A stretch of 23,222 nucleotides of DNA. Source: a virus (Duplodnaviria > Heunggongvirae > Uroviricota > Caudoviricetes). A program made the position numbers. The stretch lies in the IMG/VR virus record IMGVR_UViG_2529293142_000011; one strand, 5' to 3'. This document shows, one piece after another, positions 9,001-12,000 of the stretch; position 1 is the stretch's first letter, and each line of letters starts with the position of its first letter.

Positions 9001-12000
9001 CGGGAGAAATTCGATGTCGATTAAACATTACGATGTTGTCAGGGCGGCGTCGCCGTCAGACCTTGCGGAAAAGCTGACACACAAACTGAAAGAGGGCTGG
9101 CAGCCATACGGCGGACCGGTTGCCATTACGCCGTACACACTGATGCAGGCGATGGCTATTGAAGGAGAGCCACAGGTCGGCCCTTCATCTGAGCCGGATT
9201 GGTACTACGTCATCGTACTGGCCGGGCAGTCCAATGCCATGGCTTACGGTGAAGGGCTTCCGCTGCCGGATTCATACGATGCTCCGGATCCGCGCATTAA
9301 ACAGCTGGCGCGCCGCAGTACAGTGACGCCGGGCGGGGCTGCCTGCAGATATAACGATATTATTCCGGCTGACCACTGTCTGCATGATGTGCAGGATATG
9401 AGTACGCTGAATCATCCGAGGGCTGACCTGAGCAAAGGGCAGTACGACTGTGTCGGTCAGGGTTTACATATTGCCAAAAAACTGCTCCCGTATATCCCGA
9501 ATAACGCGGGGATCCTGCTGGTACCATGCTGTCGTGGTGGTTCGGCATTTACCCAGGGCGCGGAGGGGACATTCAGCGAGTCCACGGGGGCCAGTCAGGA
9601 TTCGGCACGCTGGGGGGTGGGCAAGCCGTTATATCAGGATCTGATTTCCCGCACAAAAGCGGCATTGCAGAAAAATCCCAAAAACGTTCTGCTGGCCGTC
9701 TGCTGGATGCAGGGTGAGTTTGACATGAGCGCCGCCACCCACGCACAGCAACCTGCGCTGTTTACAGCCATGCTGACACAGTTTCGTGCTGACCTCTCCG
9801 TGTTTAACGCGCAGTGCCATGGTGGCAGTGCTGCAGATGTGCCGTGGGTTTGTGGTGACACGACGTATTACTGGAAAAATACATACGCTACCCAGTACGA
9901 CACCGTGTACGGCGGGTATAAAAACAGGGAGAGTGAGGGCGTTTATTTTGTGCCCTTCATGACAGATGGTAACGGCGTCAATACCGCCACTAACGCGCCG
10001 GCAGAAGATCCGGATATTCCGGCATCAGGATATTACGGTGCGGCATCGAGAACGAATGGAAACCAGGTATCATCAAACCGCCCGACACATTTCAGTTCAT
10101 GGGCGCGCAGGAGCATTATTCCGGATCGTCTGGCAACCGCTATTCTGAACGCAGCCGGGCGCACCTCAGCCTTCATCAGTGGTAAGGCACCGGAAATCAA
10201 ACCCTCGCCCGGCGGCAACACGCCATCGGGTCCGTCTGCAGATACGTCCGTTCGCACAATCTCCCTGCTGCCGGCAGCCGGAGAGGCTGCTGCGCAGGGC
10301 TGGAGCATTAAGGATGGCGGAATTCAGTTGTCAGATGGTGTATTTAAGATCACCAAGCAGAGCAATAAAACCTGGTCCCTGACGCATCCGGTGGATGACG
10401 CAATTACCCTGCTGACACAGGGCGGCAGACTGACCTGTAAGTTCCGCCTGTCAGGCGCACTGACCAACAATCAGTTCGGGCTGGGGATTTATCTGTATAC
10501 GGATGCTCCCGTTCCTGATGGTGTGGCGATGACGGGTACCGGTAATCCGTTCCTGATGTCGTACTTCACTCAGACCACTGACGGCAGAGTGAATCTGATG
10601 CATCACAGGAAAGCCGGAAACACGAAGCTGGGGGAGTTCGGCGATTACGGTAACGACTGGCAGACGCTGGAGCTGGTGTTCACCGCCGGCAGTGCCACGG
10701 TTACTCCGAAACTGAATGGAGTGGCTGGCCCGGCATTCCAGGTTATAAAAGACAGTCTGACACTGGGACTGAATGCGCTGACGCTGACGGATGTTACAAA
10801 AAATGCAGCGTATGGCGTTGAGATAGAAAGTCTGATGCTGGAGATAAATGCACCGGCAGCATAATAAAAAAAGCCAGCGACTGACCTGAAAAAGAAGACG
10901 CTGGCTAAAAGGCCTTATATGTTTGTAGAGACTTATTTTTCACAGACAGCAATGATGCCTGTCAATATATTATCAATATGCGGATTGTTTCAGTTACAGA
11001 TGCCTTATTAAGGAAAAAACAGCCAGCACTGACTTTCGGTGGAGAGGTGCTGGCTCAAAAGGATAGATGTACTTCACATGTTGCTTCTATATGGCAGTAC
11101 ATTTTCTGACAGACAGTGACGGATGTTGTCAAGATATTGTGTCATTTATAACCTGAATCAGGGGAGGCCGGAATGTTATCTGGCATTTTTAGCAGAGCCT
11201 GAATGCCATAATCACGGCTCCCGGCGTTGGCCGTCAGTGGGTGACACTGGCGGCTTTTTTGTTTTTCTTTACTTTCATTTTCTGTCGGCGGTGACGGAGA
11301 CATACATCAGATGGAAAAAATCACAACAGGTGTGTCATACACCACGTCAGCGGTGGGGACGGGATACTGGTTACTGCAGCTGCTGGACAAAGTCTCTCCG
11401 TCCCAGTGGGTGGCAATAGGTGTGCTGGGAAGTCTGCTGTTTGGCCTGCTGACGTATCTGACAAATCTTTATTTCAAGATTAAAGAAGATAAGCGTAAGG
11501 CTGCGAGAGGTGAATAATGTCGCCGTCATTACGCAAGGCTGTTGCAGCTGCTATTGGTGGTGGGGCTGTTGCCATAGCGTCTGTGCTCATCACTGGTCCA
11601 GGTGGTAACGATGGTCTGGAAGGTGTCAGCTACATACCATACAAAGATATCGTTGGCGTATGGACTGTATGTCACGGACACACCGGAAAAGACATCATGC
11701 CCGGTAAAACGTATACCGAAGCAGAATGCAAAGCCCTCCTGAATAAAGACCTTGCCACGGTCGCCAGACAAATTAACCCGTACATCAACGTCGATATACC
11801 GGAAACAACGCGCGGCGCTCTTTACTCGTTCGTTTACAACGTGGGCGCTGGCAATTTCAGAACATCGACGCTTCTTCGCAAAATAAACCAGGGCGATATC
11901 AAAAGCGCATGTGATCAGCTACGGCGCTGGACATACGCTGGCGGTAAGCAATGGAAAGGGCTGATGACTCGCCGCGAGATTGAGCGTGAAGTCTGTTTGT

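Follow-up and report, generated by a model that had tools for sequence, protein, structure and literature searches.

A probable tandem pair of minus-strand small RNA genes of the PasA family in the esterase–holin spacer of a Caudoviricetes prophage

PasA is an Hfq-dependent sRNA of EPEC E2348/69 for which a northern blot and a decrease in an hfq deletion strain have been reported; its coordinates (743499 to 743415), probe and seed are given in Table S6 and Fig. S5 of that study, with one start and two ends (the second defining a 236-nt "minor" form) and an orientation published as '> < >' (Pearl Mizrahi et al. 2021, PMC8550237). By number of interaction partners it ranks among the top sRNAs of EPEC, several copies occur in many EPEC and EHEC strains, and RIL-seq in the same study indicates that host and virulence mRNAs are targeted in trans by PasA-type RNAs. 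The pasA copies are reported to have arisen only via repeated prophage acquisition and not to be tandem duplicates, the closest pair lying 22 kb apart (Zhu, Shabalina and Storz 2026, 10.64898/2026.05.13.724894). Two candidate Hfq-bound sRNAs of EHEC Sakai, EcOnc51 and EcOnc52, are both flagged with a Rho-independent terminator (Tree et al. 2014, PMC4104026, Table S2); that table gives them as peaks in different prophages, without a northern result, and does not describe them as tandem paralogues. We found no literature on EcOnc51/52 beyond that report.

The stretch analysed here (the window: all 23,222 nt of the virus record IMGVR_UViG_2529293142_000011) carries two related units on the strand opposite to the phage late operon (Table 1). 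Their flanking genes are as the preliminary description of this DNA had them, a sialate esterase of the nanS-p type (a SASA family carbohydrate esterase in 99–100% identical records) and a class II holin; the esterase stop codon lies 8 nt from the first hairpin. We interpret the spacer, with a probability of roughly 0.78, as two tandem minus-strand sRNA genes of the PasA family, namely pasA and a diverged, autonomous paralogue (unit 1).

Table 1. Features of the esterase–holin spacer and its surroundings (window coordinates).
Feature	Position	Strand	Basis or remark
Sialate O-acetylesterase gene, nanS-p type, 616 aa	9014-10864	+	ORF; 99-100% identical records
Unit 1	10865-11013		First of two consecutive diverged elements
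Unit 1 RNA, predicted ~67-68 nt	10866-10933	-	Diverged PasA/PasC paralogue
 U-tail	10866-10872	-	
 Terminator hairpin	10872-10906	-	
 U-rich CCUUUU	10907-10912	-	
 Body	10913-10933	-	
 Unit-1-specific stretch			AGUCUCUACAAACAUAUAAGGCC
Unit 1 promoter block (putative)	10934-10971	-	Homology to block upstream of pasA
 AATAT	10971-10967	-	
 -35 TTGACA	10965-10960	-	
 Extended -10 TG	10944-10943	-	
 -10-like GAAAAA	10941-10936	-	
Spacer	10972-11013	.	pasA terminator to unit 1 promoter block
Unit 2	11014-11165		Second of two consecutive diverged elements
Unit 2 RNA = PasA, 84-85 nt	11014-11097	-	Spacer identity, published coordinates, probe
 U-tail	11014-11019	-	
 Terminator hairpin	11021-11055	-	
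 Variable 5' body	11056-11097	-	
pasA promoter block (putative)	11099-11138	-	Published 5' ends of PasA/PasC
 AATAT	11138-11134	-	
 -35 TTGACA	11132-11127	-	
 TG	11111-11110	-	
 -10-like CAGAAA	11108-11103	-	
Separate structured segment and strong intrinsic terminator	11166-11265	+	Terminator scan, phage 434 annotation
 Terminator stem	11229-11255	+	
 Terminator T-run	11256-11265	+	Just upstream of holin gene
Class II holin (pinholin) gene S	11311-11517	+	Annotation of near-identical records
SAR endolysin gene	11517-12014		After holin gene

The two units had been noticed as diverged tandem elements, and they are present at the positions proposed. On the plus strand, each has a GC-rich hairpin (AGCCAGCG...CGCTGGCT in unit 1, AGCCAGCAC...GTGCTGGCT in unit 2) followed by AAAAGG, and a conserved block (ACAGACAG-N10-TGTCAA-N-ATATT) at 10942-10971 and 11109-11138, so that all three of the shared elements described earlier were located in both. 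Similarity between the units exceeds background (z = 7.3–9.4): gapped local and global scores are higher than in all 1,000 dinucleotide shuffles and in all 900 other 152-nt windows taken from both strands of the 23 kb. Stricter local scoring, which picks up one block only, is marginal (28, when the best of the other windows reached 27), and the softer gapped scoring was adopted for that reason. The block pattern has exactly two matches in the window even with two mismatches allowed (zero expected); Tandem Repeats Finder reported nothing on the units, because the copies are too diverged. Judged from their sequences, the units are a diverged tandem duplication that includes the terminator hairpin. 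The period of ~150 bp first suggested holds from hairpin to hairpin (149 nt) but not from block to block (167 nt), since the body of unit 2 is longer by ~18 bases. Likewise, the repeats fill the interval 10865-11310 assigned to them only up to about 11140-11165; the remainder (11166-11310) is a different element, comprising a structured plus-strand segment, a strong plus-strand terminator (11229-11265) and the holin leader. The spacer is non-coding, as first described: ORF lengths vary among close haplotypes, and the five ORFs considered (29–98 aa) are truncated or shifted in many of them. A 16-nt inverted repeat (10739-10754 and 11140-11155) brackets the entire module.

The importance given to RNA structure in the preliminary description is borne out, on the other strand. 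An A-run precedes each hairpin on the plus strand, hence these are intrinsic terminators of the minus strand, where U6–7 directly follows each hairpin and both units thus end in the 3' stem-loop plus poly-U of the intrinsic terminator/Hfq module. Both carry a minus-strand terminator annotation in the phage 434 record, and published RNA data place Hfq-bound minus-strand RNAs exactly at both. Across 15 variants, 97% of the cells in the 9-bp terminator helix are paired, compared to 21–49% when the partners are slid, and between unit types compensatory changes (C-G/U-A, G-C/A-U) occur at three inner pairs; stable predicted folds and covariation had been suggested as a check, and both were found. 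As plus-strand intrinsic terminators the hairpins were rejected: AAAAGG comes after them and the T-runs lie on the minus strand, so they do not terminate the late or lysis transcript. The proposed duplicated terminator is thus half right, the duplication being real and the plus-strand remnant not.

Under the original proposal, plus-strand structures or terminator remnants would time holin expression and lysis, or the repeats would be protein-binding sites. The spacer does lie directly upstream of the lysis cassette, the plus-strand folds are stable in both units (z -4.3 and -3.3), the block is quasi-palindromic and resembles a plus-strand promoter too, and full complementarity of the sRNAs to the late transcript makes a cis-antisense effect conceivable. 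Stable plus-strand folds, however, are to be expected whenever the opposite strand encodes a structured RNA, and on the plus strand the hairpins lack a U-tract. The real plus-strand terminator is a separate element (11229-11265), its segment at 11166-11265 folding at -45.7 kcal/mol (z -3.5); it is found in all spacer classes, and the class without units has a different sequence with an equivalent hairpin and one compensatory change visible (read off the alignment). Functional lysis cassettes occur with two, one or zero units upstream, and expression data put the RNAs on the minus strand. We found no support for control of lysis timing, an idea now left only with possible cis-antisense pairing between these RNAs and the late transcript, and consider this whole line of explanation barely credible.

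Unit 2 can be matched to PasA directly. Window 10850-11320 is identical to prophage PP2 of E2348/69 (NC_011601 743251-743724) but for one A in an A-run; the published PasA coordinates map onto unit 2 on the minus strand, with ends at 11097 and ~11014, the published probe GCCAGCACTGACTTTCGGTGGAGAG matches plus-strand positions 11022-11046, and the published seed GCCAGCACCU is found, as an exact match, inside the 5' arm of the unit 2 hairpin. These matches identify unit 2 as pasA. The 3' end of the 236-nt minor form is at 743264, which is window 10863, at the terminator and U-tail of unit 1.

A covariance model built without unit 1 (from PasA, PasA-2, PasC and GUAC-type RNAs) scores unit 2 at 103 bits and matches unit 1 at 10864-10945(-) with 32.2 bits (E ~5e-5 by a rough calibration, the score coming largely from the terminator and U-rich stretch). 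Unit 1 is the sole other significant match in the 23 kb, the next minus-strand match having E = 0.72, and its predicted fold is stable (-17 kcal/mol, z -3.7). By homology, unit 1 is a diverged tandem paralogue of pasA, and its 5' end would correspond to that of PasA. The units differ within and beside the 5' arm of the hairpin, the site of the PasA seed (GCCAGCAccucucc versus GCCAGCGucuucuu); unit 1 has GCCAGCGUCU in place of the seed, sharing the first seven bases and diverging beyond. Different target sets would therefore be expected, and the unit 1 RNA probably has targets of its own. The seed is not family-defining, as PasC differs there too. The 5' stem-loop of PasA is not kept in PasA-2 or unit 1.

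Published signals exist at both units. EcOnc51 (Sakai Sp12) overlaps the unit 2 position, and EcOnc52, an Hfq-CRAC peak in Sakai Sp4, corresponds to window 10854-10931, minus strand. An EPEC RIL-seq RNA2 fragment (743267-743294(-), window 10866-10893) lies at the unit 1 terminator and forms chimeras with escD. All unit 1 RNA signals could instead come from pasA read-through, since the RIL-seq authors treat the region as a 3' extension of PasA. In Sp4, an IS629 insertion directly after the position that corresponds to window 10987 cuts unit 1 off from any pasA; the EcOnc52 peak could also derive from multi-mapped reads, as Sp12 carries a unit 1 identical to that of Sp4.

These signals bear on whether unit 1 is a gene or a decayed duplicate with a hairpin that now does no more than stop read-through from pasA as a back-up terminator, keeping antisense transcription out of the esterase gene and forming the 3' end of the 236-nt isoform. 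The published annotation (a minor, 3'-extended form that shares the start but has a second end), a unit 1 body 18 nt shorter, a weak -10 and the 17-nt loop of the PasA terminator, which fits leaky termination, would all suit such a role. Against it, solo copies of unit 1 persist without any pasA upstream, unit 1 is less variable than the PasA body across haplotypes, and in solo copies on pO26-like plasmids the full promoter block is unchanged while body and hairpin have diverged (0 of ~11 substitutions fall in the block of the ~91%-identical plasmid copy; about p = 0.01). We think a decayed duplicate unlikely, and favor independent transcription of an autonomous unit 1 from its own putative promoter, with a TTGACA block homologous to, and spaced like, those of pasA and pasC. 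The conservation arguments are weak, because unit 1 shows little diversity and the plasmid copies amount to essentially one lineage.

The conserved block is most likely the promoter region of each sRNA gene, because the 5' ends of PasA (window 11097) and PasC (position 310 of its locus) both fall on the C of GUA|CUGCC, 30 nt past the last base of TTGACA (the published ends being coverage-based). A promoter region fits the block better than the protein-binding repeat first envisaged, though a regulator site may lie inside it. With up to two mismatches, the block stands upstream of 312 of the 314 family terminators in the fetched loci, the first set of which was retrieved with the block pattern itself; the unit 1 block has no variable site in 26 haplotypes, a figure that depends in part on the search pattern. 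A Fur box was looked for by eye in the AT-rich stretch preceding unit 1 and dismissed, as only 6 of 19 positions matched.

The proposed -10 elements (CAGAAA, GAAAAA) are weak, and a consensus promoter scan did not call the TTGACA promoter; it called CTGAAA-18-TATATT on the minus strand (10993 to 10964, reaching into the spacer 10972-11013) and CAGACA-17-TATATT on the plus strand. The minus-strand call for unit 1 suits another arrangement, in which the block is a transcribed leader, the promoter lies upstream (-10 AATAT(A/C)T, -35 CTGAAA or CTGATT) and an RNase E cut in the AU-rich AGAAAAU stretch gives the mature 5' end. The mature PasA 5' end has been reported to come from cleavage of a longer transcript (Zhu et al. 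2026, 10.64898/2026.05.13.724894); if so, part of the block is transcribed leader. GACA/UGUC pairing is possible within the block of every unit, but this 4-bp helix is invariant and hence without covariation support. The published PasA and PasC 5' ends also lie at the canonical distance from a perfect TTGACA, and with one start and two ends in Table S6 the longer species is 3'-extended. We regard a transcribed leader as possible but rather improbable; it would alter only the start site, and each unit would remain an autonomous gene.

In related phages, to which the preliminary description had looked for a check, the number of units varies. Among 80 loci found via the esterase C-terminus, two units are present in 47, one unit in 18 and none in 4. 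Unit 1 occurs in 677 and unit 2 in 691 of 5,426 complete E. coli genomes. When 185,579 species genomes were scanned for the block pattern, only E. albertii came up besides eight scattered single matches in unrelated taxa, roughly as many as chance would produce. There is thus no evidence for the family outside Escherichia. Rfam has no match anywhere in the window at the gathering score, and at E up to 10 within 10700-11450 it gives only chance-level snoRNA/sRNA matches, the anti-sRNAs AgvB/AsxR, Esr41 and STnc100 being absent there. The recently described prophage sRNA HnrS (EcOnc10-12) is absent from the window.

In the arrangement we propose, two head-to-tail sRNA genes on the minus strand would run convergently with the phage late operon. 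Each would have a sigma-70-type promoter (a perfect TTGACA -35 and a TG-extended, weak -10), then a short variable body and, in its 3' part, a U-rich stretch, a Rho-independent terminator hairpin and a U6–7 tail; U-rich stretch and terminator would together make a typical Hfq-binding 3' module. pasA (unit 2) would give the Hfq-dependent PasA of 84–85 nt, with expression and Hfq binding as in the literature, and unit 1 a predicted RNA of ~67 nt. Read-through from pasA would be caught at the unit 1 terminator, yielding the 236-nt species. Both RNAs are complementary to the late transcript, inside the ~400-nt 3' UTR of the esterase moron and directly ahead of the holin gene, so cis action is possible, and a cis-antisense effect on that UTR or on the late transcript may be suspected. 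A far-reaching version, which we hold to be very unlikely, makes the pair a two-gene sRNA module serving the phage life cycle through cis action on the late transcript as well as trans targets. Duplex formation, RNase III cleavage or interference by convergent transcription could be involved, expression of the esterase and lysis cassette would be uncoupled or tuned, a shared regulator would use the quasi-palindromic promoter block as its operator, and the 16-nt inverted repeat might be part of the mechanism.

Unit 1 seems not to have been recognised before as a PasA relative. As the recent PasA survey denies tandem duplication of pasA, the paralogy adds modestly to what is known. Should unit 1 prove to be a real gene, two related sRNAs that differ in their seed regions are encoded at most pasA loci, complete E. 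coli genomes contain ~2,300 unannotated copies, reassignment is needed for the "236-nt PasA" reads and for the RIL-seq chimeras, and the family undergoes both tandem duplication with divergence and a return to one unit by loss. For sRNA biology the advance is incremental, and the mechanism is not new.

Paralogous sRNA genes lying side by side, alike in promoter and 3' end but divergent in the target-binding part, are familiar from OmrA/OmrB and PrrF1/PrrF2, and PrrF1-PrrF2 also gives a read-through tandem transcript. The unit 1/unit 2 pair is like these in architecture and unrelated in sequence, and the PrrF1-PrrF2 read-through transcript is comparable to the 236-nt PasA species; unlike them, units 1 and 2 lie on a prophage, converge with a phage late operon and are found in Escherichia only. 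AgvB and AsxR (Rfam RF02702, RF02703) resemble the units in being short prophage sRNAs that depend on Hfq and lie at a moron site, antisense to the late operon, and in combining a conserved 3' module with a variable 5' part, but they occupy another spacer, upstream of the esterase gene, and the units have no Rfam match. EcOnc51 (Sp12) and EcOnc52 (Sp4) overlap unit 2 and unit 1, respectively, on the strand opposite to the late operon. PasC (PMC8550237; 10.64898/2026.05.13.724894) has the same promoter block, 5' end position and location as the window units, and its hairpin base (GCCAGCG/CGCUGGC) and esterase stop junction (TAATAAAAAAAGCCAGCG) are those of unit 1. PasC loci, however, have only one unit, whose body is long like that of PasA and whose stem is longer (11 bp), whereas the body of unit 1 is shorter and different and stands in tandem with pasA. 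The closest system is PasA of E2348/69 itself, to which unit 2 is identical but for U-tract length, with the same strand, place, probe and seed; in the PasA papers, unit 1 appears only as the 3' part of the 236-nt minor form.

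The interval between the sialate esterase and holin genes lies in the late region of a lambdoid prophage, and DNA 99%–100% identical to it occurs in phage 434, Stx1a phages and many E. coli prophages. Two consecutive units with a hairpin, AAAAGG and a conserved block had been described here, and they are present (10872–10971 and 11021–11138). On pairwise alignment, the gapped score of unit 1 (10865–11013) against unit 2 (11014–11165) exceeds 1000 of 1000 dinucleotide shuffles (z 7.3–9.4) and all 900 other windows on both strands, and the block pattern matches exactly twice in 23 kb with up to two mismatches allowed (expected 0). 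The interval 10865–11310 is a repeat spacer only in part, as the units end near 11140–11165 and the remainder is a different element.

Features of the interval and its flanks (window coordinates; sequences in + strand reading)
Feature	Position	Strand	Details
Sialate esterase gene	9014–10864	+	616 aa; upstream flank
Unit 1 hairpin	10872–10906		AGCCAGCG...CGCTGGCT; AAAAGG next
Unit 2 hairpin	11021–11055		AGCCAGCAC...GTGCTGGCT; AAAAGG next
Conserved block	10942–10971 and 11109–11138		ACAGACAG-N10-TGTCAA-N-ATATT
Structured segment with strong intrinsic terminator	11166–11265	+	stem 11229–11255; T-run 11256–11265
Class II holin gene	11311–11517	+	68 aa; downstream flank

On the + strand, both hairpins have an A-run before and AAAAGG after; on the minus strand, both units read CCUUUU, hairpin, U6–7, which to judge from the sequence is an intrinsic terminator with a U-rich stretch before it. 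In the curated record of phage 434, both hairpins are listed as terminators of the minus strand, alongside a third terminator, on the + strand, whose position corresponds to 11229–11265. Covariation across related loci bears the structure out: 15 unit variants keep 97% pairing in the 9-bp terminator helix, versus 21%–49% with the partners slid, with compensatory changes at three inner pairs. The idea of a duplicated terminator is thus right as to the hairpins, but on the minus strand. The terminator that serves the + strand is a separate, conserved element, ending 46 nt short of the holin gene's start codon. Spacers of 161 nt, which hold no unit, have a different sequence with an equivalent + strand hairpin, in which one compensatory change, G-C to A-U, is visible. 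On the moron concept, this terminator would plausibly shield the lysis genes from non-antiterminated transcription of the esterase moron. Neither a role of the units in lysis timing nor protein-binding repeats found support; the + strand is without U-tracts after the hairpins, and lysis cassettes exist downstream of two, one or no units.

Sequence identity makes unit 2 pasA. The PasA sRNA of EPEC E2348/69 has been mapped to the minus strand in a major form of 85 nt (743499 to 743415) and a minor form of 236 nt (743499 to 743264), with probe GCCAGCACTGACTTTCGGTGGAGAG, flanking gene orientation "> < >" and EHEC homologues EcOnc51 and EcOnc52 (Pearl Mizrahi et al. 2021, PMC8550237, Table S6). Bar one A in an A-run, window 10850–11320 and the E2348/69 spacer are identical, which therefore places PasA at 11097 down to ~11014, minus strand; the probe matches the + strand at 11022–11046, and the published PasA seed, GCCAGCACCU, forms the 5′ arm of the unit 2 hairpin. 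The 236-nt form has its 3′ end at 10863, the unit 1 U-tail; pasA read-through stops at the unit 1 terminator. The published E2348/69 sRNA PasD2 (741157–741328) matches 172 of 172 nt at 8755–8926 (+), in the spacer that precedes the esterase gene, and the window therefore has the known PasD2–esterase–PasA arrangement; this region gave no Rfam match at gathering score, STnc100 included. A 16-nt inverted repeat (15/16 complementary) with arms at 10739–10754 (CAGGTTATAAAAGACA), within the esterase coding sequence, and 11140–11155 (TGTCATTTATAACCTG), just upstream of the pasA block, brackets both units; 2 of 300 dinucleotide shuffles of 10600–11600 reach equal quality. A weaker second one (10832–10850/11143–11161) involves the published PasA target motif CUGAUGCUGGA.

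The main rival reading, in which unit 1 is a copy that has decayed and now acts only as a back-up terminator, is compatible with the end of the 236-nt form, and we regard it as unlikely. A covariance model built from PasA, PasA-2, PasC and GUAC-type RNAs only, with unit 1 and the promoter left out, gave two significant matches in the window: PasA (103 bits) and unit 1 at 10864–10945(−) (32 bits, E ~5e-5 by rough calibration), with nothing else on that strand better than E = 0.7. Unit 1, found by a model built without it, is therefore a diverged family member at the RNA level. Its predicted RNA of ~67 nt (10933 to 10866) folds at −17 kcal/mol (z −3.7). The EPEC RIL-seq feature "pasA.E2348C_0688.IGR" is sRNA-like and always in the RNA2 position, and one chimera with escD puts the fragment at 743267–743294(−), equal to window 10866–10893. 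In EHEC Sakai, the Hfq peaks EcOnc51 (Sp12, 2237479–2237555, antisense to late genes) and EcOnc52 (Sp4, 1181998–1182075) were reported by Tree et al. (2014, PMC4104026). Mapped coordinates put EcOnc51 over unit 2 and EcOnc52 at the equivalent of 10854–10931, minus strand, which is unit 1. In Sp4 (L006, 985–1140), IS629 lies right after the equivalent of 10987, 22 nt upstream of the unit 1 −35, which leaves no pasA next to it. Because unit 1 of Sp12 has the same sequence, the EcOnc52 peak may be multi-mapped reads; as evidence for independent unit 1 expression it is weak.

By published coverage data, the 5′ ends of PasA (window 11097) and PasC (E2348/69 1290909) coincide on the same C of GUA|CUGCC, 30 nt beyond the final A of a perfect TTGACA, as is canonical between −35 and +1. 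After TTGACA follow an 18-nt spacer ending in TG and then CAGAAA (unit 2) or GAAAAA (unit 1), and we read the block as a putative extended −10 promoter with a weak −10. A consensus scan prefers CTGAAA-18-TATATT (10993–10964, minus strand), which overlaps the block and would start inside it, requiring 5′ processing; cleavage of PasA from a longer transcript has been mentioned (Zhu et al. 2026, 10.64898/2026.05.13.724894), but the two published 5′ ends both sit at the canonical distance from TTGACA. Under either minus-strand reading each unit would have its own promoter, and we lean towards that of unit 1 being active. Read on the + strand, the quasi-palindromic block (10943–10971) resembles a promoter as well (CAGACA-17-TATATT), one that would point towards the holin gene.

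The fetched loci contain 314 terminators of the family type, and 312 of them have the block upstream (≤2 mismatches). The unit 1 block has no variable site among 26 haplotypes, versus 30% of sites in the PasA body, a comparison partly conditioned by retrieval of the first locus set with the block pattern itself. That scan of IMG/VR returned 120 stretches, with two blocks 167–169 nt apart at 78 loci and one block at 48 loci. Read as RNA, the units are of five types: a short one (that of unit 1), PasA, PasA-2 (different 5′ body), PasC (stem GCCAGCGUCC/GGGCGCUGGC) and one that we name GUAC (stem GCCAGUAC/GUACUGGC). Some units are hybrids, for instance with the body of PasA and the terminator of PasC. 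The IMG/VR loci (L007–L206) form a mosaic family, with at least three 5′-body alleles and four terminator alleles in varied combinations, and this mixing suggests recombination between units. A second set of 80 loci, fetched via the esterase C-terminus and independent of the block pattern, showed three spacer sizes. In 47 loci the spacer is ~445 nt and holds both units plus the proximal segment; in 18 it is ~292–301 nt, and a single unit of PasC or GUAC type follows the stop codon directly; four belong to the unit-less 161-nt class. The other 11 were truncated or IS-interrupted. Spacers with one unit or with none show that units come and go as modules.

Unit 1 occurs at 2302 places in 677 of 5426 complete E. 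coli genomes (~100 on plasmids), without annotation among the matches listed, and unit 2 at 2790 places in 691. In a set of 185,579 species representative genomes, the tandem pair is confined to E. albertii. Solo unit 1 is found on 62 PLSDB plasmids (pO26-like EHEC and E. albertii plasmids; in E. coli O26:H11 plasmid NZ_CP031923.1 at L208, 2476–2660), beside an 87-nt esterase 3′-end remnant and between IS600 and the uilS lactonase gene. Unit 2 is absent, and the plasmid sequence breaks exactly at the expected start of the pasA terminator. The plasmid copies, essentially one lineage and counted as a single comparison, are ~91% identical to the window with no differences inside the 38-nt block (chance ~0.01 if substitutions were evenly spread), and the hairpin keeps its pairing via a G-U pair.

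Taken together, we propose two autonomous minus-strand sRNA genes, pasA and unit 1, convergent with the late operon, and put the probability of this overall picture at about 0.8; an active promoter of unit 1's own is less certain. pasA yields PasA (84–85 nt) and unit 1 would yield its ~67-nt RNA, with leaky termination at the large-looped pasA hairpin giving the 236-nt co-transcript. Both RNAs would have the U-rich stretch, hairpin and U-tail typical of Hfq-dependent sRNAs, and published RIL-seq has them acting in trans, by pairing with mRNAs of host and virulence genes; the units diverge exactly at the PasA seed position, so distinct targets are expected. The preliminary description was accurate in observation and only partly right in interpretation.

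Rfam 15 has no matching model for either unit, and an incomplete literature search found no description of unit 1 as a paralogue. The survey of Zhu et al. (2026) holds that tandem duplication did not produce the pasA copies, the nearest two being 22 kb apart; its BLAST criteria would have missed unit 1. PasA, PasC and their location were already published (2021, PMC8550237; 2026, 10.64898/2026.05.13.724894), as were the Hfq peaks EcOnc51 and EcOnc52 (2014, PMC4104026). To these known systems our analysis adds a modest point, that most pasA loci hold a second, diverged and unannotated family member in tandem.
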